Shown here in pieces: positions 8,783 to 56,592 of a DNA stretch of 64,000 bases (position 1 is the first letter of the stretch; the number at the start of each line of letters is the position of its first letter). Location of the stretch: assembly GCF_964355755.1 (NCBI RefSeq), contig NC_092674.1, positions 9,300,001 through 9,364,000 of the forward strand. Reading direction: 5' to 3'. The stretch comes from Antedon mediterranea (taxonomy: Eukaryota > Animalia > Echinodermata). The position numbers and the translations under genes were made by a program. Below the pieces are notes generated by a model, which saw nothing but the letters and a program-made list of their open reading frames with translations, made no database searches and had not been told where the DNA came from.

Positions 8783-11700
8783 TCATGCAATGCAGCAGGA
8801 TTGTGGCAGGTACCTCGAAAAACCACTACTTTCAGATTGAACATTAGTCTTTTCTTGATTGTCGGTGTCCTAAAAACAAATATACCATCATGGTGAATAA
8901 ACTATTTTTACAAGGAAAGGAAAATAAATAAAATGAGATTGCCTCGCAGGCCTAAACTACGAGATGTAATTTGGGACTTGGGCCCATATGGGCGAGTGTG
9001 CCAGTAATCCTATCAAATATCGGCAATAGTATATGGTTAGCCTACAATATTTCTTCTTCTTTCTGTCTAAATGGGTGAGGGTAAACGTAGCTAAATATGT
9101 TATTTTGAGTTTGTGTATTTAATCCATCAGGTCAACTTATTTTCTGGGCAAAAAAAGCGAAACTTTGAAGGGAAGACTGAGAAGGAAAACTTCTTACTTT
9201 GAATCGTTGTTTCCAGCGTCTGATGTTATATTTTCCTAGTGAATTAAGTACATCAATTATCTCTTCTTTGAGGCTTTCATAGTCGAGGCTTCGTCGATCA
9301 GCTCCCAGACTATGCTCCATATTGTAGGCCTCCTCGAGGAATTCCATACTAAGACTGAAGCGGTTTTCCGCATCCGCTGAAGAATATAATAAAAAACCTT
9401 TATTATTGCAATGAGAGTTTTTAGACTCTACAGATCACAATGTTGGTCGGTCGGTTGGTCGGTAAACACTAACTTGAGCACGCGACTGCAGCCATGTATA
9501 TGGCCTTGTTTTATATACTGCTTATAGAAATATAAAATACCAAAACATTGTAAAATAAGAAACAATTACTGAATAACCACACTTTATATATCGTCTCTAA
9601 AGATTCTTGAGGTGGCCGTTTCTATAATTGTGATACAGTATAAATTGGTGAAGGGTTGGCAATTTTAGATTTGCAATTGTCATAATATCGTTATTCCGAT
9701 CTTTTTTATTCTGGCGTTATCATAAAGTAAACAAATAACAGTAACTAACCTCGCTGGGCCTCTGATATTTCTGCGGCTCTTAATATTTTCTTACCAATAT
9801 GATGGTGAACACGACCAACAAAGTACAAGCACCTGGCCGTGTCTGGGTTTTCTTTCAAAATCCGTCGGCAAATACCCAAACTTTTCTCAGCATCTGGGAG
9901 AGCTTTTATATAATCTCCCTTTTCAAAGTTGCAAAGCGCCATGTTTTTCAATATTTTGGATCTATGTGAAATTTCTATACCCGGGAAACTATTCTTCTGT
10001 ATTTTCCATGCCTTTTTGAACCATTCTAAAGCTTCGTCGTACTTTGCTGTTTTCTCAGCACCCTTGAGTCTATTCCCCCAACTTCTTAAACAGGCTCCCA
10101 TATTCATGACATACACAGAATAATCAATATGTCCTTCTGGATAATTATCTGTAATTCTTTCAATTATGTCCAACGCCTGTTGGTGATACGATCTAGCCTC
10201 ATGATATTTTCCCCGACGGTGTTGCAAATGGCCAATTGAGTTCAATCCACGCGCCGTCATTGTATGATCTCTTTCGTGTTTTCGTCGTAGAGCCAAAGAT
10301 CGTTTAAGTGCATTCAAACTTTTCAAGTATTTTCTCTGTCCACTGTATGCTCGTCCTTTCACGTACAGACATGCGGCCTTAGCAATCATTGTATTTTTAT
10401 GACCTGTATCTTCAGATTTTAGTTTATCAATCGTCTTCAATCCGTCGTTGGCAGCATCGACTGCCATTGGCAGTTCGGCTTGACAAATGTGCTGGTCGCC
10501 TAACCATGCACAGAAAAAACTATAACTTGTATAGTCTCTTTCTTTCTTGGCTAATTTTGATTTCTTTTCAAAATACTCAACTCTTCGATCTGCTTCAACC
10601 AACCCATCCCAGATAGCATACTGCCTTTCTTCTTCGGAAAAGTCAAATTCGGCAACAGTGTTTCTTGGTGAAATGTTAGCTTCCTGTTTAAGATATTCGA
10701 TCAGATTTGATTTGTCACTCTGGAACCTTTCAAAACCCTCTTTGAAATTTCTATTTGCAAGTTCACAAATTCTATTCAACTTTTGATGGTAATGTTGAAA
10801 AAATGCTGCCTTGGCAGTATCAATACAGGTTTTCAAACACGGATCTTCGCCTATTGCAAAGTTGCAGGTCTGCCTCACCAATGTGTGGACAATGTACTGA
10901 TTACACTCGCCTTCACACGATGCAATGTTTTTAAATTGATCTAGCTTATCAAACTGCAAAACTCCGTAGGCGCAAAGTTCCTCTAGATGCAAACTAGTAG
11001 TACTCTTCTCTTCGTCAAGAATAATGGCAGCTACCTCTCTGTAAAAGAAACTTGGAAAGACGGCCAGCTTAACCAAATATGACTTGCAATTGTTATCGAG
11101 TTGATTAAACATGACATGCAGGCAACTGAGAACACTCTCTGTTTGTTCGATACCATGATTGTCAGTTTTGCCATACCTGTGCTCAAAAACTTTCTGTGCT
11201 GGAGTCGGGTTTTTCAGAAGTTCCAGTAGCTCTTTTGGTTGCATATGTCCCAGTTTCATACGACTGGCCACCGTTCGAATCGCATGAGGGTTTTGGCCAC
11301 AAGCAAGTACCAAATCTTTACAGATAGCATCGTCGAGCTTTCGTAGCTCAGACGAGCGACGAAGAAGGGACATGGCATCTAACACTTCAAGAGGTTTTAT
11401 TTCAAGTTGATGAAAGCTGTTTACCGACAATAAGGACTCATTATCAACTCTGTATCTTGATGTGATTAGGAATTTTACTCTCTGATTTTTCTCGGCAACA
11501 AACTCACGAAGAAAATTGATGAAGTCATCACGTGGTGGTATTCTTGGCTTCAAAACGTCGTCCGCATTATCTAAATAGATTATTGTTTCTGAAAAAACAG
11601 AGTAACATATACGGTAATATATCATGGTAGATTAAAATAATTATTCTGGATAATGTTACAATACACGCCTGTTAAAAGGTTTTGTATACTGAGAGTGCAA

Positions 11701-13901
11701 CAACGATACATATTTTGATGAATTTTCTCTTAAATTTAATTTTATGGTTACAGTAAAATCTCATTAATATGAGTTATTGTAAAAAAAGTGACAATGATGT
11801 TGGCGGCAATGGTCAAAAACGAAAATGCCAAATGATGTGTATAACTGGTACCTAATTTATTTTCTCGTATCCAGCAAAATAATTCGGCAGCGTTAAAGTT
11901 AGATGGTACCATGTCTTTGATACCAATTGCGTTCATGATGGCAGCTCCTACTTCACTCAATGACATTAGGTTCCTCAAGTTGACAAGATAAGTTCTGTTA
12001 AAAAAGAAATCGAAATAAAATTTGCAATACAATAGCTTGTAGGCTCATTTTTATTAATGTATTACTTATCTATATATAAATTTACGTAAGGGCAAAATTC
12101 GATAAATCGCGGTTTATTTCTAGAATTTTTACTCGATGGTATATAAAGTTGGTTCATACTTTCGGTACTGATTTTAACCACCTGATGTAACCCTGTTTAC
12201 TAATTAAATTGAGTTAGATAATTAGTTATTGACGATTAAAACGAATTTAGGTTCAACGATTTGCCCCAAATAGGGGTGTTTTCCGATCGTGGTATACACT
12301 GTCTAATGGATGTCCAACTTGAAAAATACCCGCACACAATAATACGAGGACGCTTCGCATTTTCCTATCTCCTCCTAAGATAATTGTTTTTAATAGCTGA
12401 AAACCGGTTGAACTGCTCGAGTACAGCATCATAATGTTGAAGACAGGCCGATTTTCTTTAAAAAATACTATTTTGATAGATTTAATTTACGTTTTTACAA
12501 ATGTATTGATTTGCGATGAATGGAACATTCCAATCTCCCAGTCTGCCAGTTTGGTTTAACACAAGTAGGTAAATTTATGAGCCCTTGGAGAATAAACTTG
12601 CAATACTTTGACAATACAGTACTGCAAATACCTATTAACCATTTTTGGTCGTCATTTGAATCGAACATTTCTTACTGTGAATACTGTTAGATGTAAAAAA
12701 AATATATACAAACATTTCTTACTGTGAATACTGTTAGATGTAAAAAAAAAAAATACAAATAAACTTTATTACTGTGATTGTGGGTAGGCTCTACTGTTAG
12801 ATATATAAACACGTAATATACAAATAAACTTTATTCCTGACATTTGCTTCTCAACGTTTGCATTAATTAATAATTACAAAAAATATAAACGTCGTAGTGG
12901 TGTATCGTTACATGTACTTTACTATTTCAATCGACTATGACAGTGACAGTTTTAACAAAGTATTAAATCGCAAATGTTTTACTATATTTAGTCACCGTTA
13001 GTGGTATATTATTTATAGGCCTATAAAAATGAAAACAATATTTCGTTACTGACGTGGATAAAGAATATATTTAAAAATTGTTCCTCTTTGTACCTATCCT
13101 CTTTCCCATCCCTCAACCCTAATTAAACAATTTGGACTCATTTTGTGGTAAGTTTCTCTTTCGGAAGTAATTCCCAGGGTGCTAATTTTGGTTGACTACA
13201 TAAATCATTGTGTCTACTTATTCGTTTCTGTAAACGACAATGTATTATAGTCCTGCGGTACGTGCATTTAAAATCGCCAGATTTTTTACCCTGAAATTAC
13301 TGTGTATTCGAGAACCATCTGTGGGCACGACCATCTAGTTAACTCAAATTAAACTAACTTAAAGATGTGTTTAATGTGCTTACGTAACAACAAATTCTTC
13401 TTTTAAATATGCGGAGTAGATTGCGCAAGTCTGAATAGATAACTTTGTTTTTCCAATTCCAGGCGAACCGGCGAGAATCACACAACAACATTTTCCAGTT
13501 TTCGCAGCAAAAGCCTGTAAGATTTTGTGCAATTCTTTGTCTCTTCCAACAAACAAAGAATCGTGTTTTACTGACAGCAACCTGATGCGTTCTTTATATT
13601 CTTTTATTTTCGGTTTATACTCTTCAATCTCGCCTAAGCCAGTTTTGTTCTTCATACGCTCGTATACTTCCTCTAGAAATCTAGTATCGTCCTCCGAAAT
13701 AATCCCATTGTCCCAGAGTTTCTCGAACAATTCTAGCGGTGTTGATAATTCATCGTAGACATCCTTGGCCAACTTATCTCTTGAGTATAGTTTAACTTTC
13801 TTGAATTCTTCATCTTTCATGCCATCATGCTGTTCAGTTAAGAATGCATAAAACGGATTAACAGTAACGGGAATTTGATCGTTTTCTTTACTTGACGTCA
13901 T
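8783..13901 (-). CDS. NLR-like DED-STAND NTPase (NB-ARC-like)-TPR protein, copy 1, 921 aa, C-terminal CaaX (CCIA); exons 13384-13901, 11852-11994, 9750-11588, 9198-9376, 8783-8869
   Basis: All introns are GT-AG and phase-consistent. DED-like N-terminus (PLELFEKLWDNGIISEDDTRFLEEVY), Walker A GSPGIGKT, Walker B IIYLDNAD, sensor-1 FLITSR, GxP CGQNPHAI, LAVFPSFF, MHD-like VHTLVR, then TPR repeats (HTMTARGLNSIGH, NPDTARCLYFVG). Confidence 0.9.
9420..9512 (-). mobile_element. Short Helentron/HINE-like element; also at ~34508-34590 and ~55203-55285 (+)
   Basis: Shared sequence aacaaggccatatacatggctgcagtcg...(ccga)n in three copies; absent from the equivalent intron of copy 2. Family assignment is tentative. 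Confidence 0.55.
12069..13338 (+). mobile_element. Helitron-like non-autonomous insertion in copy-1 intron
   Basis: Termini a|TCtatatata ... catCTAG|t. This intron is 1389 nt, against ~170-230 nt in the three paralogs. Confidence 0.6.
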
Positions 13902-13960
13902 GATTTCCTTAGTCCTATATAATAAAATATGTGAAAAAAATATGGTCATTACAGTGGGAC

Positions 13961-14003
13961 CAAAGATTGTATAGCGCCGCTACGCGGCGCTATACAATCT
14001 TTG
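13961..14003. mobile_element. 43-bp perfect hairpin mini-element with 7-bp TSD
   Basis: caaagattgtatagcgccgc-tac-gcggcgctatacaatctttg, flanked by gtgggac on both sides. Confidence 0.8.
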
Positions 14004-17540: not shown

Positions 17541-17835
17541 TCCGGTTTCTTTGAAGGAAACCGATTGGTTATTCAATAATACTTATTAGGAAATGCTTTT
17601 ACCATAATAGGTAATGTTGGGCGGGTCTTAAATATTTATGAGAGCTTAAAATAAAACAGCACTTATTTGCTAGGCGACGAAAAATCGTGGTTTCAGTTTT
17701 CAACGATAGGTGGCGCTTCAAAATCGTCAATGCGGAAGTAAGTCGATTTTACACGATTTAACGGTCAAAACGCGAAGTGGCTTTCCCACTGATTAAAATC
17801 TACGCCATGTACAGTGTTGAAAGACGACAAAAATT

Positions 17836-18853
17836 ATGTTTATTGGAATGCTACAACTTAATTGTGAATTTAAAGACTTAAGGTATAAGTTTCTATCTTG
17901 TATAAACGATATTCTCTTGAAGTGTAATTGTGAATCCAAAAATATTTTCACCACTCTCTCAAATTATAAAGAAGTCTACTTTCCAATTTCTGAAATCTTA
18001 AGAAAACTTAACTATATAATGATAGATGAATGGAGAATTGAATTACAAAATAAATCAAGTCTCCACATCTATGAAACATTAAAATCAAAACCTGGACTTG
18101 AAAATTACTTAATTGATAAAACTAATTTTGAAGGTGCTGCATTAAAATTTAAAGCTCGTTCAAATACTCTACCTTTGAATGATAGAACTGCAAATTGGAA
18201 TATTGATAATAATAAAAAATGTAAATTGTGCGGTACAAATTCGGACGAAGACATCCATCATTTCATCCTTAATTGTCCAGCTTTAAATAATATACGTAAT
18301 CAGGAATTATTTCATTTATATGTGGATATGTATAGAAATGGCAGCAAAGATATGTTTGATACTTTTTATACTTCTCCTGAAAATGACAAACTTAAATATA
18401 TTTTGGGATACTCAGATAATTTAATTGATGAAGAGTGTGAAAATATTTTGGATAGTTTTTGTAAAAGATACCTAAAACAAGCATGGCAATTTCGAAATGA
18501 TTCACTGAATTCCATGACTCAATAACTATGTTATCTACATTGCTACATTAAGTAAATTGAAATAAAAGTGGGTTGGGGGTTTTTCGTAATAAGCTGTGTT
18601 TATCAGCTGATTTTATTTTATTTTATACACTTTTACTATATCTTGTTTTGTATTCATTGTGTAAAGTAATGATCTACTGTATGTATCGATGTAAATTGGG
18701 GGGGGGGGGGGGGTTAGGATAGGGGTTGATAGTTGATTTTGCCTTTTTTTACTTTTCTGTTAATTGTTATATTTTATATTGTGAAGGATGCACCTTTGTG
18801 CTAAGTGTGCCACCGATCTAAAGGTGTAATTCCAAATAAATAAATAAATAAAC
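17836..18853 (+). mobile_element. 5'-truncated non-LTR retrotransposon (ORF2 C-terminus, 3'UTR, (aaat)n tail)
   Basis: 229-aa open frame with LKFKARSNTLPLN...CKLC...EDIHHFILNC zinc-knuckle motif found after RT domains; (aaat)n tail at ~18834-18853. Confidence 0.8.
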
Positions 18854-21832: not shown

Positions 21833-22042
21833 TTTTTTACACGACCGTTTTCCTTATCGTTTTGTTGATCGTTGAAATAATGGTGAATGAAATTAAGTCT
21901 TAATTTCTTCACCATCAATGTAGTATTGCCTTTGAGACGAAGTGTACCGTATACACCAAGTTAGTATTGAATAATTCGCTATTAAGATAAGATATTCCGT
22001 AATTACGTATTACATTTGTTATATTTACAGGAGAAATGGGTC

Positions 22043-25000: not shown

Positions 25001-26459
25001 TGTACTTTGTTGGATGTACTCACCATCATATTGGTAAGAAAATACTAACAGCCGAAGACTTATCAGAGGATGAGAAAGGTAAGTTCTGTGAGCAAGCGGG
25101 AAAAATAAAATTATCTTGTCAAATTTCAAATTATCGGATATACGTGATATGACATAAAAACTATTATAAACTATTCTGTTACCCTATAGCACTCTGGTCA
25201 GTATTTAGAAAATTAAAGGCATGTATGTATTTACATTTATTATAATCGTTTAAGTAGTTTATATCAGCTAATACTTTTACGCTTTTGTTCGAGAGCAGTA
25301 GCTGATATAAACTATTTAAAAAATTGCAAAACGTTCAGCGTGTTTCCAAAATGTATATCATTATAACCAATTCCATTTGTTATAATAATTTTTCTTCAGC
25401 GGATGCTTACAATCACTTCAGTCTTAGTATGAAATTCCTTGAGGAAGCCTACAATATGGAGCATAGTCTTGGACCCCATCGACGAAGCATTGACTATGAG
25501 GACCTCAAGGAAGAGATAATTGATGTACTCAGTTCACTCGGAAAAGACGAGGATGCCACCAATCTCTGGGAACAACGATTTGCGGTATGTTTTGTTTTCT
25601 AATGAAAACAGATGAAATTTTTTGATAATGAAAAGTATTTAAAATAAAGTACTAGGGTCAGATTTATCAAACATCTTTAGAAAGAAAAATTTAATTCAAC
25701 TTAGGTCAATTGTTTTTGCTTTAGTCAGTTTGTTTACAAATAATCTAAGCAATTATTTTCTTAACTCTTAGATGACGAAGTCTATTCCATAAGATACCAT
25801 GAAAAGAACTGGTCTGATAAATACAGCTTTTCACTCGAGTACTTCTTAACAAAAATATTGATATTTTAACTTACGGCAACGTGGTGTAAATTTAGCTCAT
25901 GAAACTCTATTCCTTGTCGAATCATAATCATACAAATAGATCACATCACAAATATGACGATATGTTTAATATCCTGTAATTAAACGTGTTCTTCGATCGT
26001 TGTCGACATTTTAAACCAGTATCTGAATTTGCAAGTTGTTTGAAATAAATCATTAAAAAAATGAGCTGTAAAGTTATGAAGAGAAATAGCCGAAATATTT
26101 TATTTTTACGAAATTAACTATACCATTATCAATAAACCTGCGTTTTTCTTTTTTTTAATTAGTTGATCAGTCAGTACATTCACGATATCATGTTTTTCTG
26201 TATTTAGGAAACAGACCAACAAGATACTACTGAAAGTTATCATACCTGTTATGAACATATCGGTGCACCAACGCAACCAACTGAAACCACTAAAGAAGAA
26301 GAAGAAGATGATGAACCTATGGAACCACATGGATCAACGGATGAAGAAGGTGCATCGTTGAAACAATCAGAGGGACCTAAAGAAGAAGATGTTGTAGCAG
26401 GTGGAAAGAGTTACACAACTCGAAAATTGTTTAAGATGGACAAGTGCTACGTTGCCTAA
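22043..26459 (+). CDS. NLR-like DED-STAND NTPase-TPR protein, copy 2, 986 aa, acidic tail plus C-terminal CaaX (RKLFKMDKCYVA); exons 22043-22563, 22735-22877, 23219-25078, 25400-25584, 26208-26459
   Basis: Open spliced frame with the same intron positions and phases as copy 1; GSPGIGKT, YLDNAD, FLITTR, CGHNPHAI, VHTLVR and TPRs all present. Confidence 0.92.
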
Positions 26460-31500: not shown

Positions 31501-34500
31501 ATGACGTCAAATAATGAAATCGATAATATTGCCGTCACTGTTAATCCTTTCTATGCATTCATAACCGATCAACATAATGACATGGTCAATGAAGAATTCA
31601 AGAAAGTCAAACTCCAGTCAAAAGACAAATTGGTCAAGATTGTCTACGATAAAATAAAAACACCGCTAGATTTATTTGAGAAACTCTGCGATAATGGAAT
31701 TATCTCGGAGGACGATACTACATTTCTGGAGGAAGTATACAACCATATCCAGAACAAGATTGGCCTAGAAGAGATTGAAGAGTACAAACGTAAAAGAAAG
31801 GATCATAAAGAACGTATCAGGTTATTGTCAGTAAAAACCGATTCTTTGTTTGTTGGAAGAGACAAAGAATTGCACAAAATCTTACAGGCTTTTGCTGCGA
31901 AAACTGGAAAATGTTGTTGTGTGATTCTCGCCGGTTCGCCTGGGATTGGAAAAACAAAGTTATCTATTCAGACATGCGCAATCTACCCAGCATTTTTGAT
32001 AGAAGAAAAAGTAGTTGTTACGTAAGTATGTCATATTGCTAACTACTACCTATTTTAATTATAGTTTCTGTTTCAAGTGTTGTAGATAATTAAATTAAAG
32101 TCAAACAGTCCTTGGGAAACTTTAGTAACTGCACATATTATTTAATAATAATAAATTATTTCTTTCAAATTTATGAATAGTTACATTTTAAATACAACTG
32201 AAATAGTTTATATGAAAGCCATTATTTTTTACTACTACTTTTTTTCTACAGTACTTATCTTGTAAACCTGAAGAACGTAATGACAATGAAAGAAGTAGGA
32301 GCAGCCATCATGAATGCAATTGGTGTCAAATATATATTACCATCTACGTTTGATGTAGACGAGTTATTAGGAAAGATACGCGATATCAAATCAGGTATAC
32401 TTTAAAATGTCTTTTTTTCCATCCAACAGTAGACCCAAGGTTCAAGTTCAAAACCCGAATCTGAAGCCCTACACATGTACATTAGAAAACCTATTTGATC
32501 ACTTTAAAATGATATACTATTATACTATGTATGGTATTAAGTTACAATATTATATAATAACATTATGATTTTTTTTCAGAAACAATAATCTACTTGGATA
32601 ATGCTGATGATGTTTTACGACTAAGACAGCCTGTACGTGACGACTTCACCAAGTTTCTTTGTGATTTTATTCGCGAAGAAAATCAGAGAGTAAAATTCCT
32701 AATAACAACAAGATATAGAGTTGATAATGAGTTCTTATTGTCGGTCGACAACTTTCATCAGCTTGATATCAAACCTCTCCAGGTGTTGGATGCAATATCT
32801 CTTCTTCGTCGGTCGTCTGGGCATCCAAATCTTGATGACACGATTTGTAATGATTTGGTATTTGTTTGTGGCCATAACCCTCACGCGATTCGAGCTGTGG
32901 CCAGTCGTATGAAACAAAGGAATATGAAACCAAAAGAGTTACTGGAACTTCTAAAAAAACCGGCTCCAGCTGGAAGAGTTTTCGATCACAGGTATGACGC
33001 AAATATGTCGACTGAAGGCCAAGAGATCGAACAACAGGAGAGCGTTCTCAAATGCCTACGTGTTGTGTTTGATCAACTCGACAACAATTGCAAGTCATAC
33101 TTGATAAAGCTGTCTGTCTTTCCAAGCTTCTTTTACAGAGATGTAGCTTCTATCATTCTTGGTAAGGAGAAGAGTTTCACCAGTTTGTATCTACAAGATC
33201 TCTATATCTATGGTCTTTTGGAATTCGATAAGCTTGATCAATTTAAAAACATCGATTCTTTTGAAGGGGATCGTAACCAGTACAATGTCCATACACTGGT
33301 GCGGCTCACCTGTGAACTCGAGACACGAGAAGATGAGTCTTTAAGACCCTTTTTTGATGCTGCCATGGTAGCATTCCTCAATCATTACCATCGAGTGATC
33401 AATGAAATCTGCGAGCATGCAAACAAACATTTCAAGGAAGGTCTTGAAAAGTACCAGAGTGATAAAATAAATCTAGTACAATACCTGGAACATGAAGCAA
33501 ACAGAAAACCGACAAACGCAAAAGAATTGAACTTTTCTCAGGAGGACAGACGGTATGTTATCTTTGATGGCTTAGTCGAGGCAGATCGAAGAGTTAAATA
33601 TTTTGAGATCAAATCACTCAAAGCTAAGGAAGAAGGAGACCTGATAAGTTACAGCTTTTTATGCGCATGGGTAGGTGAACAGTACATATGTCAAGCCCTG
33701 ATATTAGAGGCACATGAAGCTGCGGACAACGGTTTGACGACACTTGATAAACTAAAATCTGGAGACAGAAGCCATGAAAATACAATGATTGCTAAGGCCG
33801 CCTGCCTATACGTGAAAGGACGAGCATACATCAGGCAGCAGAAATACGAGGAAAGTTTGATAGTTCTTCATGAATCGTTAGCTTTGCGACGAAAGCTTGA
33901 AGGAGACCATACGATGACCGCACGTGTACTCAACACAATTGGGCACGTGTTCTATCATCAGAAAAAACTTCTGGAAGCCCAGCGCTATCACCAAGAGGCA
34001 TGGCAAATGATTGACAAAATTACAGGTGGTAAACCAGAAATACATATTGATTTTTCTGTATATGTCATGAATGTGGGAACCTGTTTTAGAAGCTGGGGAA
34101 ATAGATACACGGATGCTAAGGAAAGCGAAATGGCCAAAGAACAATATGACAAAGCTTTAGATTTTTTCAATAATGCTTTAAAAATGCAGAAGAGGAGCTT
34201 TCAGGATCAAGAGACTGAATTGACAGCAAAAATTCTTAGGAATAGGGGACTTTGCTACTTTGAAATGGAAGAATATACCAAAGCTCTACTAGATGCTGAA
34301 CGAAGCTTGCGTCTTAGCCAACGGATTTTGAAAGAGAACCCTTATACAGCCAGTTGTCTGTACTTTGTTGGATGTACTCACCATCATATTGGCAAGAAGA
34401 TACTAACAGCTGCAGACGTATCGGAGGACGAAAAAGGTAAGATAAATGTGTCCGGCCTTCTAGGAGCAAGCGGGAAAAATACATAATCTTGTCAAATTTC

Positions 34501-36351
34501 AAATGAAACAAGGCCATATACATGGCTGCAGTCGATCGCGTGCTCAAGTTAGTGTTTACCGACCAACCGACCGACATAGTGAGCTGAAAATGAAAAAATG
34601 ACAGTAGTTTTAGATGACATATACAACTATTCTATTACCCATAGCACTGTGGTCAGTATTTGAGAAATTTAAGAATAGAAATGTAGGTATATACCTACAT
34701 TATTATAACCAATTTCATTTGCTATGATAATTTTTCTGCAGCGGATGCTTACAACCACTACAGTCTTAGTATGAAATTCCTTGAAGAAGCCTACAATATG
34801 GAGAATAGTCTGGGACCCGATCGACGAAGCATTGACTATGAGAAGCTCAAGGAAGAGATAATCGATGTACTCACTTCACTCGGAAAAGACGAAGACGCCA
34901 CCAATCTATGGGAACAACGATTTGCAGTATGAGTTTTTTTTTCTATCAAAAAAAAGTATTTGAAAATAAAGTACTGGGGTCATAATTATCAAACACCCTT
35001 AGAAAAAAAAATCACCTTAACTTGGTTTTAAGTCAATTATTTTGCTTAGAAATAACCTTAGCAACTACTTTCTTAAAGGAAAGGAACACCCTGGGCTAAA
35101 TGTGCCACTGTGCTTATAGATAAATGTAATAAAAACATGATTACAATGGTTCAAGGTACAATAGTAAGCAATTTAGTTAAAAAATAGACTTTTAAACGAC
35201 AACATATCGGAAATTGAACAGCGCCATTTTGACAGGTTAAGAGCAAATATGTGACGTCAGATTAGGTGGACGCATTCAAGCAAATCCAAGCGTCCATCGT
35301 CTTAGTACAGTATTTCAATATGGAAGTGCGGGATATAACCATAAATAAAATCAATTAAATAGCCTAACATACCTAATAATTCGGAATATGGCTTGGAGTT
35401 TTTATAATTCAGAAAATTTGGAACCAGAATATACAGAAAGAGAGTTAGTTTTGCGTTGTGCAGATGAGGAAAAAAGAAGAGAAGAAGAACATTCTCGAGC
35501 ATAACAAGCCGTCGAAGAATGGTGTACTTGCGGCCAGTGTATCTGTACTGTATGCCTTACTAGGCCTAGAACTCGTGTTGAACGAAAATAAAGTAGACAC
35601 TGCATCGTCAACAGCCTTCGTTTGGAAGGTTTACCAGTTAATTCCCCATCCAAATCCCGTTTGAAACAGCTAGGCAATAAAAGTAACAATAGATTAATAA
35701 TAGCTGAAAGATTTACGAATTGGCTTGCAGAAGAAAAGATCGAGCGAAGGTTTGTTTACCAAGCCAGCGCATGCTCATACCGCGTCATCGCCGTCCTGCA
35801 TGACCGCATGTCGCGTTATTAGCCAATCATATTAGCGGATTCGCTTATCCAATAGAAGCGCCGAATGCAACCGCGAATCTTAAAATTTTCGTCGGCCGTA
35901 TCTGACGTCACAAACAGGCTGCCATGAGCACAAGATGGCGATTTTCAAATGTCTTGAAAACAGCTTTAAAATCCTGTTTACTAGAAAACTACAAATCCGA
36001 TTTAAACATAAATTGTTCTGAATATTAAGTTGGTAGGGTTACTTTTATAATAGTTAGGTAAAATATTAGGTTGTTCCTTTCCTTACTTAGATGACGAAGT
36101 CTATTCCATAAAAATACCCTGAAAAGAACTGGTCTGATAAATAAAGCCGTAGTTCTTCTTCTTAAAAAAAATTGATCTGTAAAGTTGTGAAGAGAAATAG
36201 GCCAATAGTTTTTTTAAACAAAGTTAACTATAGCATTATTAACGAACCTGTGGTTTTTTTCTTGTTTGAATTAGTTGATCAGCCAGTAAAATCACGATAT
36301 CATGTTTTTTTTTTCTGAATTTAGAAAACAGACCAACAAGATACTACTTAA
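31501..36351 (+). CDS. NLR-like DED-STAND NTPase-TPR protein, copy 3, 910 aa; premature TAA in last exon removes the acidic/CaaX tail; exons 31501-32021, 32252-32394, 32580-34436, 34742-34926, 36325-36351 (ancestral stop 36561)
   Basis: Open spliced frame through the TPRs. GAA>TAA at 36349-36351; the downstream frame is still open to ...KMDKCYVA*. Confidence 0.88.
35077..36083. mobile_element. ~1-kb TIR element inserted at TTAA (Kolobok-like MITE)
   Basis: TIRs aggaaaggaaca / tgttcctttcct after ttaa. The empty site ttcttaactcttag is in copy 2 (~25760). Confidence 0.7.
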
Positions 36352-38854
36352 AGTTATCATACGTGTTATGAACATATCGGTGCACCAACAGAAACCACTA
36401 AAGAAAATGACGATGAACCTATGCAACCACATGGATCAACGGATAAGGAAGGTACGTCGTTGAAACGAGAGAGAACAACGAAAGAAGAAGATGCTGTAGC
36501 AGGTGGAAAGAATTACACAACTCGAAAATTTGTTAAGATGGACAAGTGCTACGTCGCCTAAAAAAGAATTCAGATTTGAGGTTAATTTAACATGAAACAT
36601 ACATAAAATAATAAAGCTATACATTTCCACAGAAAAAAGCCCGAACCAATAGGCCTATAATTACTGAAAATTGATGAAAATAAACAGTTAAACAAAAACC
36701 TGTTGTCTGACCAGGGAAGTTAAATTAGTTAATTTTAATTTTTAATAATTCGTTTAACCTCTAATAGTTAGGCCTAGTTGTATGGGAAAATGTACATAGG
36801 CCCTAACTCTTCATGATTGTTAAATTAGTTCAGTTAGTTTTATTAGACATATCTTTATAAAATGCAGCAACAATTGCTTAAAACTTTTACGGAATTATTC
36901 TCAATTTATTTACATTCCAATTGTTATTATAGTAATTGATATACTTTTAATCGAACCTTGTCTAAATGCAATATTAATTTAATATTAAGGTTCTATACCT
37001 TGCATAGGACTAAATAACTGAGGCCACCGATTAGAAGGAATACGGCCTGAGATTTTGACGGCTCAGAATTAGCTTATTTGTATATAATGCATTTAGTGGG
37101 AAATAATATTAATAGCCGCCAAATATAATTTAACATCTTGAAATCTTAAATTATTTTTAATTTTCAATAATCCATTTCTATTTAAATTATTTAAACGCTT
37201 TATATTTTTTTTTGTCTTATGTAGGATCGACCCACTTTTATTTCTTCATCAATAAAATGTTCGTTTACAATGAGTACATTGAGCACATGAGTAATGTAAT
37301 GATACAATACAATATAATTGACATCAACTAACTTTCAGTACAACTGATATCTCACTCCTACCATTGCATTTTATATATAATAGTATAAGGAAAGAAAAAA
37401 AAAATTCCTCTATGTTATACACTCTATACGCTTTATATTTGTGTACAGTAATAAATGTGCATTTTTACTATATGGACGATGTATCGATACATGTTTAGAA
37501 GGACGGGATACGATAGGATACCTGTGTGTTTAAAGAAGAAGCTGTTTTAGAGGTATATATATATTATATATTCTCTCTTCATTGGCACTTTTAAGGTTTT
37601 TTTTTAGTATGTGTGCCTTGTAAAGTTTATTAAACAAATAAATAAAAAATTAATTTAAGGGAAAATTCCTGAAAATCTTTGTTACTCTCTTATTTTGGCA
37701 AGTATTTCGCTCTGTTTCTAAGCGCCAAATGTATTATTAAGGGAAATTGGTCTATTGAATAGAGTTTTATACTTTAGGCCTGCACTATGTATAGGAGGTA
37801 TCCTGTATTTACACTTCCACAGTAGGATTACATGTTCTGTAGGTCTACAGATAAATTTTGTATGCACAAGTGTTCAATATTGTATATGTAATATCTTGTA
37901 ATATCCAATTTAAGCCCGATCTACTATTAATTACTAACTAATTAAGAAAAACAGTAAGAACTAGAAACACTATGTTCAATAGAACATAACCCCAGTCAAT
38001 GGTGTGGACAAATCATCACGAGTTAAAGTCTCAGTAGATGACTTTTTTTAAATTTTATCGCCAAACGCGAGTGTTGCCACACGAAAATTACACAGTCAAT
38101 ATCATCGTACTCGAGAATTTACTGGATTTTATATGTTTAATGACAGGGACACGACAATTGCGCGAATTACTCAGTCAATATCATCGTACTCGAGGATATA
38201 TACGATTTACGATCCTCACAGCGGTAGTTATGTGATGCAGTTTCAACCAATCACGTTCACGTATTTACATAGGCTATGTAATATAATTATTTATTTGTTA
38301 CCCTGCTTGTTCACGAAATACGGTAAATATCTACGTTCTGATTCCATATTCTGATCCGCTTGACTGAGTAAATGGGCGTAATAATACGGAATTATATCTC
38401 ATACATATTGACCAATCGGATTACAGAATTCACGTACACTAAGAGATAAAATTAAATATTACCGTATTAATTCTTTTATTTAGACTCATCAGGGAAGTTA
38501 CCAAGGCTATACATGACGTTGACAAAAATACATTATTCTATTGTACATTGTGAATATGCTGGTATATACCTTAATACATTCTAGAAATATAATTGCGTTT
38601 CTATTATAATTAAACAGGGTTATCGAATATGATATTGATGGACTATGTAATTGTGGTAACCGACATATTCAGTTTTAGTATGTAATTGAAGACACTCTCC
38701 AAGGTACCGTAACTAGCTGTAGAAAAACGTTAAGGTAAGAATACTTAAGCCTACTATGTTGAATGCAACCTGTATATCCTCTTCGTTTAACTATATCTAT
38801 ATCTAAATCTATGCCTATTACATAGTTCCTAATCTAATTACATTTTACACACTT

Positions 38855-46762: not shown

Positions 46763-46763
46763 G

Positions 46764-46796
<33 letters not shown>

Positions 46797-47340: not shown

Positions 47341-48862
47341 CAAAGATTATCTTTTTTGGTTTCTTGGGTACACGGTCTATTTTTTTAGAATGGGATACAG
47401 AGCACCTTTCCCATTCTCACTGTGATATCCAGTCTATTTCCACCTTCTCTCATGATGATGTTTCCTAGAACCATCCTGGTTGGGAAGAAAATGGAAACAT
47501 TGATCTTTTAGTTGGTACAATCGTATCAAACTTCTCAATTCTTTAACACTAATGTTGTTGTTTTTACTGTCTACTTTTAATTTATGCATAGGGAAAGTCA
47601 CGCCGTCTCCACACACATAGACTGCCCAAATCATTATGCTACCTATAATACCAAATTTAAACTCTTGTAATAATTCACTTTAAAACTATACCCAGTTACT
47701 TTCTTGCTTGTGTTTAAAATCTAAAGAAAAATCTAAGAAAACCGTTGCTACAGTAGTATGACTATGTTATAATAATAATAATCCTAAAGGACATCCTCTT
47801 TTTGTTGGATTTACTAATAATTTATTCTAAATTTAGGTTTGTGAATCAAGATTACTATGTAACTAATTTACATATTTTTGTTTATTTGTATTAAAAAGAT
47901 TCAATATAACTAAGTATGTTGCATCAAACAGCTCATTGTAATGGAGGGAAATATTGGAACATCTGAACAAAACAAACCTAAGTTCTTTAGAATTGTTAGT
48001 TTTAATTAAATTCACATATACTGAGTAGTATGAATGATGTTTAAGGTTTACTGTGCAATGTCATAACAAACATGGTAAGCTTCTTAATTAGTATTAGTTA
48101 TAAATTATTATAAGATTCCAACAAAAAGGAGGACGAGTAAATAAACAATTTCTTTTATAACATAATATATAGTCATACTACGTTTACTTTGATTTGTTTT
48201 TATTGTTCAACTATGATTTTAAAATATCTAACAGTATTCTGTATAGCATTTGTCATTCATTTACCGGAGTTCTTTAAAATTGTGATATAGTTTAGATCTG
48301 TAAGTATAATACTAAATATTAATAATGATCTTGGTGATGAAAGATTTAACTGTGATGTTATTCATTAAAATTAATAGAATTATCTACTTAGGACTTGGTA
48401 CAAAAAATATTCCAATACACCCAGTCGTTACCAAGTTACGCAAAGTCTTAACTTTGACCATATTGACCTTTTGGCCCCTGTACTGACCAAGCATTCCAGT
48501 TTTTTTGGCCAACAGTAAAAAAATGATTTATATTGATATAAGGAAGCAAAAAAAACCTTGTTGGCATAGTTTGCTAGAGGGTGCAGGTGAACCATTTCTG
48601 GCTCCGCAACTACTTTCTTCTTCCCTCAACCATTTCAAACACATAATCATTTTCTCCAAACTATTCCTATTTTGTAACTACTGTAGTTTATTTTATGAAA
48701 CATATATTTGTTATTCACACTGTAATTTTCACTGATTCTGTAATAAAAATAATGTTTTTTATTCTAACTATTTGATGCATAAAGCCAATGCTTTTTAATT
48801 CCAAAGTATAGCAAACAATGTAACATCATTAAATGTTTTTGCAGACGAATATTGTTGGCGAA

Positions 48863-49213
48863 ATGGCAAACGATGATGAAATAATTGAGAAGTTCGATAA
48901 ATTCATCTTTGAATTCAGTAAAATTTACGAATCATATAAATTTAAATGGTTGAGATTCTGCTTATTTAACATACTGTGTTACAGTGACCTCATAGCTGCA
49001 ACTTCAGGACATCAGTTTTTAAATTCACTAGAAGATGTTGGAGTTATTCCACACGATGATGTTCATCTTTTATTAGATATCGCAAAACTGTCACGTTTAA
49101 AAAAGGCAGAAGATCTTGTAATTGATTATATTAAAACAAATGGTCAAAATAAGGCCAAACCAGTGCTGTCAAACTATCGGAAAAAGAATACGGCCAAGAT
49201 TATGACGGCTTAG
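48863..49213 (+). pseudogene. Orphan DED-like exon from a different gene family, truncated at ~49185 (potential 116-aa DED-only protein)
   Basis: Acceptor at 48843-48844, ATG at 48863. FDKFIFEFSKIY...LRFCLFNIL...FLNSLEDVGVIPHDDVHLLLDIAKLSRLKKAEDLVIDY fits a DED pattern. Joins the NLR 3'-flank repeat abruptly. Confidence 0.65.
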
Positions 49214-51466: not shown

Positions 51467-51564
51467 TACCCCTTTCACACCAAAAGCAAAACTCCGGAGA
51501 CACTCCGGAGACACCCCGGAGACACCCCGGAGTTGACGTCCCGCTGTTTGGTGTGAAAGGGGTA
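51467..51564. mobile_element. 98-bp PIF/Harbinger-type MITE
   Basis: TIR tacccctttcacacca, TTA TSD; empty site in the paralogous block at ~30662. Confidence 0.8.
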
Positions 51565-52242
51565 TTATATAAGTAGGCCTGTTATTTGTATGTTGCTTGT
51601 TGTTTGTTTAGAGACCTTACGATCATTTTTAAATTATAATTATGATTCTTAAACAATATAGTAATGTATCTGATTGTGTTCGTTTATACGCGAATTTTGC
51701 AGTAGGCGTTTCAAAAGCTGATGTTATAGATGTTTTAATTAAGTCAGCCATCAATGGACCCGTAAAAATAACTGTATCCTCAACCAGCCATACAAGTCTG
51801 TGATACAGCAACAATTGTTGTTGTCGATTATCTTTTATGATAAAAATGGTGAATGAAATTAAGTAAAACCTTTGATACCCACTGCAGTCTTTCAGACGAG
51901 ATGTAAGTATATGTATATGTTAATATTAAAGATGTGTTATCCCCCAAAAACATGAAAAATGAAGATTAATTAAATCAGACTTTTAATAGGTTATTTTGTA
52001 GTTTTAATAAAGTTAATCACTTCTGTAGAAAAAATAACCGTTTTCACTTATATTTTTTTTCCAATCTAATTTTTGGTCAAAGTGGATAACTAATATATGA
52101 CATTAAAATGGCAAATTTAACAGAAATGTTTTTAATAATTATTTTTTTCAGGGGGACAATTTACATCTATATATTATACACACAAACCTAGTTGCTATAG
52201 TTCCTTATTACATGTTTGTTATATTTACAGCAGAAATTGATC

Positions 52243-55200
52243 ATGGCGTCAAATAATGAAATCGATAATATTGCCCTCACTGCTAATCCGTTTTATGCAT
52301 TCATAACTGATCAACATAATGGCATGGTCGATGAAGAATTCAAGAAAGTCAAACTCCAGTCAAAAGACAAGTTGGTCAGGATTGTCTACGATAAAATAAA
52401 AACACCGCTAGATTTATTTGAGAAACTCTGCGATAATGGAATTATCTCGGAGGACGATACTACATTTCTGGAGGAAGTATACCATCATATCCAGAACAAG
52501 ATTGGCCTACACGAGATTGAAGAGTACAAACGTAAAAGAAAGGAACATAAAGAACGTATCAGGTTATTGTCAGTAAAAACCGATTCATTGTTTGTTGGAA
52601 GAGACAAAGTATTGCACAAGATCTTACAGGCTTTTGCTGCGAAAACTGGAAAATGTTGTTGTGTGATTCTCGCCGGTTCGCCTGGAATTGGAAAAACAAA
52701 GTTATCGATTCAGACATGCGCAATCTACCCAGCATTTCTAATAGAAGAAAAAGTGGTTGTTACGTAAGCATGTTATAATATTGCTATTAAACTACTACGT
52801 ATTTTAATTTTAGTTTCTGTTTTAGGTGTTAGATATATAAATTATAGCCGAACCATCCTTAAGAGACTGAACACATTATTTAATAACAATTACAATTTTC
52901 TTTTCAATTTATGAATAATTAAAATTCTAAATATGACTGAAATATTTTTTTTGTCTACAGTACTTACCTTATAAACTTGAGGAACTTGATGTCAATGAAC
53001 GAAGTAGGGGCTGCTATCATGAATGCAATTGGTGTCAAAGATGTAGTACCATCTACATTTGATGTAGACGAGTTATTAGGAAAGATACGAGATATGAAAT
53101 CAGGTATATTTTACAGTAGACAGTACAGTAGACTAACGGTTAAAACCCCAAAATTTGAGGCACTACACATATCAATTTGAAATCAACCAATCACAAATGT
53201 TAATCAATTTATCAGTTCTAAATTATATACTATTATACTGTGTATGATAATAAGTTACAATATGGTATATATAACATTTGTTTTTCAGAAACAATAGTCT
53301 ACTTGGATAATGCTGATGATGTTTTGAGACCAAGACGCCCTGTACGAGAACACTTCATCAATTTTCTTGTTAAATTTATTCGTGAAGAAAATCAGAGAGT
53401 AAAATTCCTAATCACAACAAGATACAGAGTTGATAATGAGTCCTTATTGTCTGTAATCAGCTTTCATCAGCTTGATATAAAACCTCTTCAGGTGTTGGAT
53501 GCCATGTCTCTCCTTCGTCGCTCATCTGACCTTCCAAATCTTGATGAGACGATTTGTAAAGATTTGGTTTTTGTTTGTGGCCACAACCCTCACGCGATTC
53601 GAGCTGTGGCCAGCCGTATGAAACTAGGACATATGCAACCAAAAGAGTTTCTGGAACTTCTGAAAACCCCGGCTCTGGCTAAACAAGTTTTCGATCACAA
53701 GTATGGCGTAAAAATGTCTACTGAAGGCCAGGAGATCGAACAACAGGAGAGCGTTGTCAGATGCCTACGTGTTGTGTTTGATCAACTGGACAACAAGTAC
53801 AAGTCATTGTTGATAAAGCTGTCCGTCTTTCCGAGCTTCTTTTACAGAGATGTAGCTTCTATCATTCTTGGTGAGGAGAAGAGCGTCACTGGCTTGTATC
53901 TACAAGATCTCTGTATCTATGGTCTTTTGGAATTCGATAAGCTTGATCAATTTAAAAACATCGATTCTTGTGAAGGGGATTGTAATCAGTACAATGTCCA
54001 TACACTGGTGAGGCTCACCTGTGAACTTGAGACAAGAGATGATTCTTTAAGACCCTTTTTTTATACTGCCATGATAGCATTCCTCAATCATTACCATCGA
54101 GTGATCAATGACATCTGTGAACTTGCAAACAAACATTTCAAGGAAGGCCTTGAAAAGTACCAGAGTGATAAAATCAATCTAGTACAATATCTGGAACATG
54201 AAGCAAACAGAAAACCGACAAACTCTGCAAAAGAATTAAACTTTTCTCAGGAGGACAGACGGTATGTTGTCTTTGATGGCTTGGTCGAGGCAGATCGAAG
54301 CCAAATCACGCAAAGCTAAGGCAGAAGGAGACTTGATCAGTTACAGCTTTTTATGCGCATGGGTAGGTGACCAATATATATGTCAAGCCCAGATATTAGA
54401 GGCACACAAAGCCGCAGACAACGGATTGACGACACTTGATAAACTAAAATCTGGAGACAAAAGTCATGAAAATACAATGATTGCCAAAGCCGCCTGCCTG
54501 TACGTGAGAGGACGAGCCTATATCGGGCAGCAGAAATATGAGGAAAGTTTGATAGTTCTTCATGAATCGTTAGCTTTGCGACGAAAACTTGAAGGAGACC
54601 ATACGATGACCGCACGTGTACTCAACACAATTGGTCAGGTGTTCTATTGTCAGAAAAAACTTCGGGATGCCCAGCGCTATCACCAAGAGGCATGGGACAT
54701 GATTGACAAAATCACAGGCGGTAAACCAGAAGTACATATTGATTTTTCTGTGTATGTCATGAATGTGGGAACCTGTTTTAGAAGCTGGGGAAATAGATAC
54801 ACTGATGCTAAGGAAACAGAAAAGGCCAAGGAGCAATATGAAAAAGCTTTAGATTTTTTCAATAATGCTTTAAAAATGCAGCAGAGGAGCTTTCCTGGTC
54901 TAGAGATTAAACTGACGTCAAAGATTCTTAGGAATAGAGCACTTTGCTACTTTGAAATGGAAGAATACACCAAAGCTCTACCAGATGCTGAACGAAGCTT
55001 GCGCATTAGCCAACGGATTTTGAAAGAGAACCCTGACACAGCTAGATGTCTGTACTTTGTTGGATGTACTCACCATCATATTGGTAAGAAAATACTAACA
55101 GCTGAAGACGTATCGGAGGACGAAAAAGGTAAGATAAATGTGTCCGGCCTTCTAGGAGCAAGCGGGAAAAATACATAATCTTGTCAAATTTCAAATGAAA

Positions 55201-56592
55201 GAAGGCCATATACATGGCTGCAGTCGATCGCGTGCTCAAGTTAGTGTTTACCGACCAACCGACCGACATAGTGAGCTAGCTGAAAATGAAAAAAATGACA
55301 GTAGTTTTAGATGACATACAACTATTCTATTACCCATAGCACTGTGGTCAGTATTTGGGAAATTTAAGAATAGAAATGTAGGTATATACCTACATTATTA
55401 TAACCAATTTCATTTGCTATGATAATTTTTCTGCAGCGGATGCTTACAACCACTACAGTCTTAGTATGAAATTCCTTGAGGAAGCCTACAATATGGAGCA
55501 TAGTCTGGGACCCCATCGACGAAGCATTGACTATGATGACCTTAAGAAAGAGATAATGGATGTACTCAGTTCACTCCGAAAAGATGAGGATGCCAAAAAT
55601 CTCTGGGAACAACGATTTGCAGTATGAATTTTTTTTTCTAAAGAAAAGTATTTGAAAATAAAATACTGGGGTCAGATTTATCAAACACGCTTAGAAAAAA
55701 AATCCTCTAAACCTGGTTTTAAATATTTTGTTTTAGTCAGTTTACAAATACCCTAAGCAACTATTTGTAAGTTTATTTTCTTAATTCCATAACCTACCGT
55801 GGACTAGTTTGATAAATAAAGCCGTAGTTTTTCTCTTGAGCTTCTTCTTAAAAATCTTGACAACAAGATTGATATATTTTCCGCCAGGCCTGGTGGTATA
55901 AGATGTGACTGACGGGTAAAATAGTTTAAAATTAGCTCAAGGAACTTTTTTCCTTGTTAAATCAAATAATATACAGTACCGTATCACATGTCAAACCATG
56001 ATAACGATACTTTTAATATCCTGTAATTGAAATATACTCTTATCTGCTCACTTGTTAAAACGTGTTCATCGTCGTCGACATTTTAACTAATGAATCCGAA
56101 TTCGGAACATTGCTTTGTGCAAGTTGTTTAAAATTATTATTAAAATAAATTTAGCGGTAAAGTTGTAAAAATAAATCGGCTAATATTTTTCTTACGAAAT
56201 TAACTATACCAATATCAACTGGAAATGTTCTCATTTTTTAATTCTGTAGGCCTACACTCATGATATGATCATGTTCGTTTGTTTTTTAGAAAACCGACCA
56301 ACAAGATACTACTGGAAGTTATTATACGTGTTATGAACATATCGGTGCACCAACGCAACCAACAGAAACCACCAAAGAAGAAGATGATGATGAACCTATG
56401 CAACCAACGCAACCAACAGAAACCACTAAAGAAGAAGAAGATAATGAACCTATGCAACCACATAAATCAACGGATGAAGATGGTGCATCGGTTAAACGTT
56501 CAGAAGGAAGAAAAAAAGGAGGTGATGCTTTAGCAGATAGAAAGAATTGCGCGAGGGCTACGTCGCCTAAAAAAAGAAAATTGGAAAAATAA
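52243..56592 (+). pseudogene. NLR-like DED-STAND-TPR copy 4, frameshifted at ~54300 (stop 54319, 564 aa); exons 52243-52763, 52961-53103, 53289-55128, 55437-55621, 56290-56592
   Basis: 17-nt deletion relative to copy 2 (agttgaatattttgaga); other exons and splice sites intact; last exon ends SPKKRKLEK*. Confidence 0.85.

Follow-up and report, generated by a model that had tools for sequence, protein, structure and literature searches.

A family of invertebrate DED–NB-ARC–TPR STAND proteins with predicted C-terminal prenylation motifs

The location of a STAND receptor decides what it can sense, and the known membrane routes for such receptors are palmitoylation and myristoylation. Plant NLRs include N-myristoylated examples. 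The innate sensors GBP1, OAS1 p46 and ZAP-L are prenylated, and CaaX motifs have been gained and lost among paralogs; to our knowledge, none of the three belongs to the STAND ATPases or has a DED. According to the accessible part of PMC10940682, NOD1, NOD2 and NLRP3 are palmitoylated, and the lipid is needed for NOD1/2 signalling. In the literature searched, we found neither a prenylated STAND protein nor an encoded isoprenoid anchor as a mode of placing STAND receptors at membranes.

The available sections of PMC2246300 describe an N-terminal DED (in Nematostella) and TPRs replacing WD40 repeats in some invertebrate NB-ARC homologs, and in those sections we found no mention of a lipid signal on Apaf-1-type NB-ARC proteins. 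The coral NACHT/NB-ARC repertoire (Hamada et al., as presented in the available part of PMC4083563) includes DED, CARD or Death N-termini, LRR, TPR, ankyrin or WD40 repeats, and tandem duplication. A bona fide animal NLR combines NACHT with LRR (PMC3879445).

Here, we describe a cluster of genes in a 64,000-nt stretch of the Antedon mediterranea genome (the window) that belongs to a so far unnamed family; no paper on the locus ids of these genes was found in the literature searched. Our reading, to which we give a probability of roughly 0.6, is that these DED–NB-ARC–TPR STAND proteins with a conserved CaaX motif are likely farnesylated and membrane-tethered, and would work as Apaf-1-like switches for the recruitment of a DED partner, for example FADD or caspase-8.

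The gene cluster and its domains

The window holds four five-exon paralogs, each encoding a DED, an NB-ARC-type STAND ATPase and TPRs (Table 1). Copies 1 and 2 translate without internal stops, have GT..AG at all four introns, and are identical, letter for letter, to NCBI models P0005 and P0001, respectively. Their products end in SRYLPQSCCIA* and KLFKMDKCYVA*; the CCIA* and CYVA* endings given in the preliminary description, with junctions 9198>8869 and 25584>26208, are thus confirmed by splice sites and by the NCBI models. The motif is delivered by only these two of the four copies. In copy 3, a TAA after eight codons of the last exon precedes an intact, in-frame CYVA*, and the product therefore lacks a CaaX motif. 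In copy 4 the motif was lost through frameshifts, and the NCBI model (P0003) bypasses the exon 3 gap by an extra intron. The NLS-type tail of copy 4 was rejected as the ancestral state because relatives among the crinoids, sea stars and urchins have a CaaX ending.

Table 1. Features of the four gene copies, in window positions (an asterisk marks a stop)
Feature	Position	Strand	Basis
Copy 1, 5 exons	13901-13384, 11994-11852, 11588-9750, 9376-9198, 8869-8783	-	Translation, GT..AG, P0005
Copy 1 exon 1: DED and Walker A (GSPGIGKT)	13384..13901	-	Pfam DED, exon limits, FADD DED alignment
Copy 1 exon 2: part of ATPase domain	11852..11994	-	NCBI model match, open reading
Copy 1 exon 3: Walker B, sensor 1, GxP, xHxL, helical domains, most TPRs	9750..11588	-	Pfam, motif scan, X1
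Copy 1 exon 4: last TPR helices	9198..9376	-	NCBI model match, open reading
Copy 1 last exon, ends CCIA*; motif and stop 8797-8783	8783..8869	-	NCBI models P0005, P0011, P0012
Copy 2 exons 1-4: DED, NB-ARC-type ATPase, TPRs	22043-22563, 22735-22877, 23219-25078, 25400-25584	+	Pfam DED, GT..AG, P0001
Copy 2 last exon: acidic low-complexity linker, ends RKLFKMDKCYVA*	26208..26459	+	Translation, X1 record 7
Copy 3 exons 1-4, DED-ATPase-TPR intact	31501..34926	+	Open reading, P0002
Copy 3 last exon: TAA 36349-36351, in-frame CYVA* 36547-36561 beyond it	36325..36561	+	P0002 end TDQQDTT
Copy 4 exons 1-4: exon 3 has, near 54300, a 17-nt gap against copy 2	52243..55621	+	Frame shift; codon 565 is the first stop
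Copy 4 last exon: frame-shifted, ends ATSPKKRKLEK*; old motif is GYVA* in other frame	56290..56592	+	Translation

The last exons of copies 1 and 2 are homologous, starting with DTDNQE and ETDQQD, and their last 15 bases show four differences with the Cys, aliphatic a2, Ala and stop all preserved. An independent origin of the two motifs was therefore rejected, and the common ending reflects ancestral conservation rather than convergence. Sequencing run X1, which is RNA by guess, also covers these exons. Its record 1 matches copy 1 over 9750-11431 and ends at the splice donor, and the pieces of a 2090-nt contig fit spliced exons 3-4-5 of copy 1 (1682+179+230 = 2091; the genomic span is 2792 nt), and none of the listed differences falls in the CCIA codons. 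Record 7 spans 26320-26642 of copy 2 with four other letters. We infer last-exon splicing of copy 1 from the X1 contig; that of copy 2 follows the NCBI model.

The earlier DED, NB-ARC-type ATPase and TPR calls were borne out. Pfam scored the DED at 36.7 bits in copy 1 and 39.0 bits in copy 2 (cut-off 35.9), and residues 14-100 of the copy 1 model aligned with the FADD DED over 87 of 87 residues (rmsd 1.3, Z 14.2). The family profile matched the DEDs of caspase-8, FADD and cFLIP (1.6e-11 to 5e-9) as well as NRC4 (5e-21) and Apaf-1 (7e-10). Five ATPase motifs, which we take to be Walker A, Walker B, sensor-1 hhTxR, GxP and an MHD-like xHxL, occur in order among the 31 long members (in 31, 28, 31, 31 and 30, respectively), and all five are present in every window copy. 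Pfam NB-ARC was over its cut-off in 12 of 15 proteins scanned, with the chiton protein just under, and was not listed at E 0.001 for the two window copies scanned. The first structure model had pLDDT <50 over residues 348-552, so that fold searches with it mostly report TPRs, and a second, sea-star model was used for the ATPase. The top matches of the sea-star member were the STAND-TPR protein 6MFV, Apaf-1 and CED-4, with NRC3 also matched; 6MFV was the best match for both models. Motif order together with the profile and fold matches places the family in the STAND NB-ARC (AP-ATPase) clade, and the intact motifs make a working STAND switch quite probable.

Pfam NACHT appeared in 3 of 15 proteins at 19.8-24.3 bits, below the 26.7 cut-off and below their own NB-ARC scores, and both Pfam and the fold comparison show TPRs, not C-terminal LRRs, in the sensor region. 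With NACHT below cut-off and no LRR, a bona fide NLR was rejected; "NLR-like", the earlier wording, is fair, but not NLR in the strict sense of NACHT plus LRR. An Apaf-1 ortholog was likewise rejected, the family having a DED rather than a CARD and TPRs rather than WD40 repeats.

The CaaX motif and its fit to prenyltransferases

Tabulating the last four residues of homologs, a check suggested in the preliminary description, showed that 24 of 36 family genes (non-redundant and reaching the C-terminus) carry Cys at -4, versus 3 of 202 other matches. At positions -5 to -12, Cys was found in 0, 0, 1, 0, 0, 0, 0 and 0 of the 36, so the frequency at -4 exceeds chance. Excluding the window copies left 22 of 32, and genes retrieved with a tail-less query gave 14 of 22. 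The genes with Cys at -4 come from crinoids, sea stars, urchins, a brittle star, a sea cucumber, amphioxus and a chiton. Upstream of CaaX the tails are mutually unalignable among family members; within the motif a1 varies freely, whereas a2 (I, L, V or M in 21/24) and X (S, Q, A, M or C in 22/24) are in line with transferase preferences. Twelve of the 36 genes lack the Cys as annotated, including the hemichordate member, which has an internal Cys cluster, a pearl-oyster clade and two second-subfamily crinoid genes. These absences, and the loss from two of the four window copies, speak against our main reading. Judged from these sequences, selection on the motif is supported across three phyla; it had first been argued from copies 1 and 2, whose last exons differ in length and sequence but share Cys-x-aliphatic-Ala.

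In copies 1 and 2, as in 24/36 family genes, the residue fourth from the true C-terminus is a Cys, and a2 and X are permissive. Motifs were scored with published SVM and PrePS tables (PMC9231725 supplement), using all 8000 motifs as background. Each table returned 18 positives among 19 distinct family motifs, compared with 33% (SVM) and 20% (PrePS) of the 8000 (binomial 3e-8 and 4e-12, for motifs that are related and hence not independent). CCIA is in the experimental positive sets for prenylation and cleavage in yeast reporters; CHIA and CNVS are experimentally positive for prenylation and CTVQ for cleavage (PMC9231725). This support comes from predictors or yeast reporters of tetrapeptides, not from the family's own proteins, and the non-canonical CKCC, CSPS and CNVS are each negative in one or more predictors. 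The earlier identification of a farnesyltransferase-type substrate agrees with these scores, and on the basis of their tetrapeptides the family proteins with CaaX are very probably prenylated. Farnesylation appears likely, and the chiton CNIL may be taken by GGTase-I.

Signals beside the motif are weak and variable, and a lone farnesyl may thus give only loose binding. Of the 24 genes that have the -4 Cys, only copy 1 shows an adjacent Cys (CC-a-X), and 14 have at least two K/R within -10..-5, often with acidic residues beside them; several other family genes have aromatic residues upstream. These counts weaken the earlier suggestion of a conserved second membrane signal. The tail has pLDDT <50 in both structure models, as a disordered tail would.

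Two unrelated NLR-like TPR proteins also end in CIIS, a hint that STAND-TPR prenylation may have been adopted more than once.

Possible mechanism and alternative readings

Beyond the domain order, intact ATPase motifs, disordered tail and CaaX, the mechanism proposed here draws on STAND and CaaX biochemistry. Farnesyltransferase would add a C15 lipid to the CaaX Cys, and this lipid would keep the resting ADP-bound monomer loosely at the cytosolic face of a membrane, its flexible tether lying next to the TPR sensor. A membrane-located ligand would bind the TPRs, upon which ATP would replace ADP; the ATPase domains could then assemble into a ring that many lipid tails jointly keep on the membrane, and the clustered DEDs would seed a DED filament and activate an initiator caspase. 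A DED partner of the FADD/caspase-8 type is rather likely, and that the trigger is microbial or damage-related is about an even bet. A bolder version, which we offer tentatively and would not favour over its negation, is an unrecognised, bilaterian-age class of prenylated STAND proteins, in which a farnesyl-parked TPR sensor forms a membrane DED 'apoptosome' firing caspase-8 from within the cell, without a death receptor. If true, intrinsic (Apaf-1-like) sensing would be joined to the extrinsic caspase, and some paralogs would be retargeted or silenced by losing the tail.

Copy number and selection bear on the role of such a switch. There are 1 to 4 genes per subfamily per genome among the matches, and two subfamilies are kept across echinoderm classes in a quick tree that broadly follows class lines. 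Pairwise dN/dS, a crude whole-domain test, is 0.21-0.39 in every domain (0.27-0.39 in the TPRs), and the variants listed for the X1 allele comprise 10 changed codons and 7 silent ones, for about 425 and 120 sites. Neither of these crude tests showed positive selection on the TPR sensor; the purifying selection in the TPRs and the X1 allele does not look like an arms race, weakening the picture of a fast-evolving immune receptor. With low copy number added, an immune role is about even. The same low copy number, retention and dN/dS would suit a prenylated STAND switch for a housekeeping or developmental signal (e.g., at the cilium, nuclear envelope or a trafficking compartment) with a non-caspase DED partner. 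Upstream of CaaX, short basic SP-K/R stretches occur in several tails, as they do in NLS+CaaX proteins. In humans, the ciliary NTPase-TPR protein NPHP3 is lipid-targeted; the Pfam NPHP3 hits here are weak and below cut-off. We nevertheless consider this reading unlikely, given the DED, the intact NB-ARC motifs and the fold likeness to Apaf-1, CED-4 and plant resistosome proteins; tandem duplication, seen also in Anneissia and Patiria, and decay of two of the four window copies are usual for defence genes.

It is far less probable that the terminal Cys is kept for a reason other than prenylation, such as palmitoylation alone, disulfide bonding or recognition of the C-terminal peptide by a TPR or PDZ domain, in a cytosolic protein. 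The predictor failures of CKCC, CSPS and CNVS, the Cys cluster replacing the motif in the hemichordate member and the loss of the motif in several lineages would fit; the placement of Cys exactly at -4, with a1 free and a2 and X following the transferase, and the 18/19 positives in each of two predictors would not. That the last exons are annotation or assembly artefacts with a motif arising by chance is already largely refuted: no sequencing run is on record as RNA, but the GT..AG junctions are canonical and in phase, the X1 contig arithmetic (2091 spliced versus 2792 genomic) fits copy 1, and the same motif class appears in independent NCBI annotations of more than 12 species.

The motif is retained in echinoderms, amphioxus and a mollusc. 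This speaks for an old pathway, which flies, worms and vertebrates may have lost; no family member from these three groups was among the matches of our non-exhaustive searches. The family would offer a direct way into the death and immune signalling of invertebrates, with the DED predicting the partner. Sea urchin and sea star have one to few genes per subfamily among the matches.

Comparison with known systems

Like Apaf-1, CED-4 and the invertebrate NB-ARC paralogs, as far as the available literature describes them, the family has a death-fold domain at the N-terminus, an NB-ARC ATPase, and a repeat sensor towards the C-terminus. It differs from Apaf-1 in having a DED for the CARD, TPRs for the WD40 repeats and a disordered tail ending in CaaX. 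The coral repertoire, in the portion described, shares the death-fold N-terminus, repeat sensor and tandem duplication, whereas our family is low-copy and orthologous across echinoderm classes. Nearest by features (0.99) is a mostly cnidarian cluster of the ESM Atlas that combines DED, AAA_22 and TPR.

Archaeal and bacterial STAND-TPR proteins (6MFV, AfsR, MalT) and fungal NB-ARC-TPR NLR-like proteins, in the available part of PMC4986451, also place a STAND ATPase before a TPR sensor; the family differs in its animal DED effector and its CaaX tail. The words 'prenyl', 'CaaX' and 'farnesyl' turn up 0 times in the main text of that fungal survey. With GBP1, OAS1 p46 and ZAP-L, immune proteins that a CaaX motif puts at membranes, the family shares that motif, and with NOD1/NOD2, NLRP3 and plant NLRs, in the accounts available, it would share the principle of a lipid that takes a STAND receptor there. 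The chemistry sets them apart in those accounts: NOD1/2 and NLRP3 undergo reversible S-acylation and plant NLRs N-terminal myristoylation, whereas the family would carry a predicted irreversible C-terminal isoprenoid added through CaaX.

Paralogs, domain architecture and transcripts

Six-frame translation and self-alignment identified four paralogs, copy 1 on the minus strand and copies 2-4 on the plus strand, whose long exon 3 is 75-92% alike by self-alignment. Each has five coding exons, GT..AG introns and an NCBI model, and exon 3 of copy 2 is identical to an NCBI protein of the crinoid Antedon mediterranea. As the preliminary description had read them, copies 1 and 2 end in a CaaX motif when the five exons are translated, giving products of 921 residues (CCIA*) and 986 residues (CYVA*). 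Only these two of the four copies carry it: copy 3 has a stop 8 codons into its last exon, upstream of an in-frame CYVA*, and copy 4, compared with copy 2, shows a gap of 17 nt in exon 3, and its frame-shifted last exon ends ATSPKKRKLEK*. The terminal exons of copies 1 and 2 had been described as different in sequence, with selection on the motif; the selection is borne out family-wide, but the exons are homologous at both ends, and their final 15 bases have 4 differences with the Cys, aliphatic a2, Ala and stop all kept. Pieces of decayed non-LTR retroelements lie among the copies.

Features of the window
Feature	Coordinates	Strand	Remark
Neighbouring-gene exon	641-877	-	putative similarity to the N-terminal region of Mediator subunit 14
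Copy 1	8783-13901	-	
Decayed non-LTR retroelement piece	17821-18522	+	zf-RVT match
Copy 2	22043-26459	+	
Copy 3	31501-36561	+	
Decayed non-LTR retroelement piece	38900-41400	-	by eye from six-frame translation
Frame of 126 codons between copy 3 and copy 4	48833-49210	+	DED-like by eye; no Pfam match
Copy 4	52243-56592	+	
Copy 4 frameshift	56540-56592	+	CaaX region becomes SPKKRKLEK, similar to a nuclear localisation signal; upstream frameshift makes copy 4 expression doubtful
Decayed non-LTR retroelement piece	56627-57112	+	by eye from six-frame translation
Tandem repeat arrays	59786-60135, 61357-62343, 62569-62955		self-alignment

The DED, NB-ARC and TPR calls made from the sequence were upheld by profile and structure comparisons. 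Pfam places an over-cut-off DED in the first exon of both copy 1 and copy 2, TPR families on the C-terminal third, and NB-ARC above cut-off in 12 of the 15 family proteins scanned (two window copies not listed); NACHT passed in none of the 15. Residues 14-100 of the copy 1 model align to the FADD DED (87/87 residues, rmsd 1.3, Z 14.2), and a family profile of 12 sequences matches NRC4, AfsR, Apaf-1 and the DEDs of caspase-8, FADD and cFLIP. The top fold matches of a sea-star member's model (mean pLDDT 75) were the STAND-TPR structure 6MFV, Apaf-1 and CED-4. Of 31 long members, all 31 carry the ATPase motifs Walker A, sensor 1 and GxP, 30 carry an MHD-like motif and 28 carry Walker B. In both models the region after the last TPR is of low confidence, as expected for a predicted disordered linker. 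The nearest ESM Atlas cluster by features has 75 members, mostly cnidarian, with DED, AAA_22 and TPR.

Expression of copy 1 was assessed with X1, a sequencing run that is RNA by guess, none of the listed runs being recorded as RNA. An X1 contig of 2090 nt fits 9750-11431 and ends at the copy 1 exon 3 donor; contigs from three other runs (one sample) run on through that intron without differences. X1 variants at equal depth lie in exon 4 and the last exon, at distances that imply ends at 8869 and 8640. The pieces of this contig total 2091, versus 2792 for unspliced DNA. Our reading, inferred from these pieces, is a transcript of another copy 1 allele in which exons 3, 4 and 5 are spliced together. 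No X1 variant listed falls in the CCIA codons. In copy 2, X1 pieces lie within exons and over the stop (26320-26642), and the last-exon junction is that of the NCBI model. Against copy 1, the X1 allele has 75 differences in 1682 bases (4.5%; 9750-11431); against copy 2 it has 16 in 1844 (0.9%; within 22029-25071). The 4.5% divergence would reflect either a deep allele or one more paralog.

The CaaX motif across the family

Homologs came from two exon 3-only searches, whose query lacks the tail, and two profile searches. Family membership required a single domain scoring 300 bits or more against the profile, and 51 of the 261 proteins collected qualified; leaving out 7 that end short of the last TPR and 8 isoform or allele rows gave 36 genes. 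Tabulating the last four residues, a check proposed in the preliminary description, placed Cys at -4 in 24 of the 36 (22/32 with window copies excluded; 14/22 among tail-less-query finds), versus 3/202 in the control, the remaining collected proteins of at least 400 residues, which are mixed TPR proteins, many prokaryotic (Fisher 6e-21, overstated as the rows are related). No position from -5 to -12 has Cys in more than one of the 36 family genes, and tails upstream of the motif do not align between separate CaaX-bearing branches. The endings are CCIA, CYVA, CHIA and CDIV in crinoids; CSLS, CSMS, CSIS, CIIC and CKCC in sea stars; CNVS, CLLS, CILS, CRVM and CHVM in urchins; CRIS in a brittle star; CSPS in a sea cucumber; CQLQ and CTVQ in amphioxus; and CNIL in a chiton. 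The CaaX observation is confirmed and is stronger than a first reading of the sequence could show: these DED-NB-ARC-TPR proteins form an unnamed bilaterian family in which CaaX is conserved over three phyla.

Twelve genes lack Cys at -4. They include copies 3 and 4 of the window, a short Anneissia sister, an unnamed fragment and three models, one each from Patiria, S. purpuratus and Amphiura, with close relatives that do carry the motif. The others are the gene of the hemichordate Ptychodera, a pair from pearl oyster and two second-subfamily genes from Anneissia. In a quick tree the window copies fall inside one echinoderm clade (support 99), and a second clade joins echinoderms and the hemichordate (support 95). 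The Ptychodera protein (P0087) has a basic Cys cluster, KACCRRLRCCCS, ~40 residues from its C-terminus; this cluster may serve as a signal for palmitoylation, or the C-terminal end of the model may be wrong. The three control proteins that have Cys at -4 include two large NLR-like TPR proteins (P0056 and P0075), both ending CIIS, with the architectures Ulp1-type protease + NB-ARC + TPR and PARP + DUF7779 + TPR, and other STAND-TPR lineages may carry CaaX as well.

By established rules the last residue, X, points to farnesylation: 22 of the 24 CaaX genes have S, Q, A, M or C there. A second membrane signal had also been proposed; a double Cys is found in copy 1 only among the 24, and at least two K/R lie within -10 to -5 in 14, often next to acidic residues; the putative signal is modest across the family. 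CYVA is positive in 3 of 4 prenylation predictors. In the tables of PMC9231725 that bear on these motifs, 18 of 19 distinct family motifs are positive by SVM (exception CKCC), versus 33% of all 8000 Cxxx, and 18 of 19 by PrePS (exception CNVS), versus 20%. Entries in the supplement of the same paper include CCIA in experimental positive sets (yeast) for prenylation and cleavage, CHIA and CNVS as yeast positives for prenylation, and CTVQ for cleavage in yeast.

Proposed role and known relatives

The architecture, intact ATPase motifs and conserved CaaX are established for the family. Farnesylation would tether the resting monomer loosely to a membrane; ligand binding by the TPRs would drive nucleotide exchange and ring formation, the clustered lipid tails would stabilise the ring at the membrane, and the clustered DEDs would recruit FADD or a caspase-8-like protease. 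We give this whole chain a probability of roughly 0.6. A microbial trigger is about as likely as not. Counting for it, copies in the window have duplicated in tandem and decayed, and Anneissia and Patiria have tandem copies too. Counting against it, copy number is low, orthologs are retained, every domain has a dN/dS of 0.21-0.39 and the X1 allele shows no surplus of changed codons. The main rival, a prenylated switch with a developmental or trafficking role, seems rather unlikely.

DED-NB-ARC and NB-ARC-TPR combinations in invertebrates are already recorded in a passage of PMC2246300 and are cited second-hand from Hamada et al. in one of PMC4083563; amphioxus DED-NACHT proteins appear in PMC2575513, and NOD1/2 and NLRP3 palmitoylation is reviewed in part of PMC10940682. 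The receptors had been called NLR-like, which is fair, but they are not bona fide NLRs by the NACHT+LRR definition given in PMC3879445. Neither 'prenyl' nor 'CaaX' occurs in the passages of PMC8195603 and PMC4986451. Among the full-text matches listed, which leave most subscription journals outside their scope, none connects a STAND, NB-ARC or NACHT protein with prenylation or CaaX, and six of the family loci are named in none of them; supplements of inventory papers may include these genes. Further systems with which the family can be compared are GBP1, OAS1 p46, ZAP-L, NPHP3 and the myristoylated plant NLRs.
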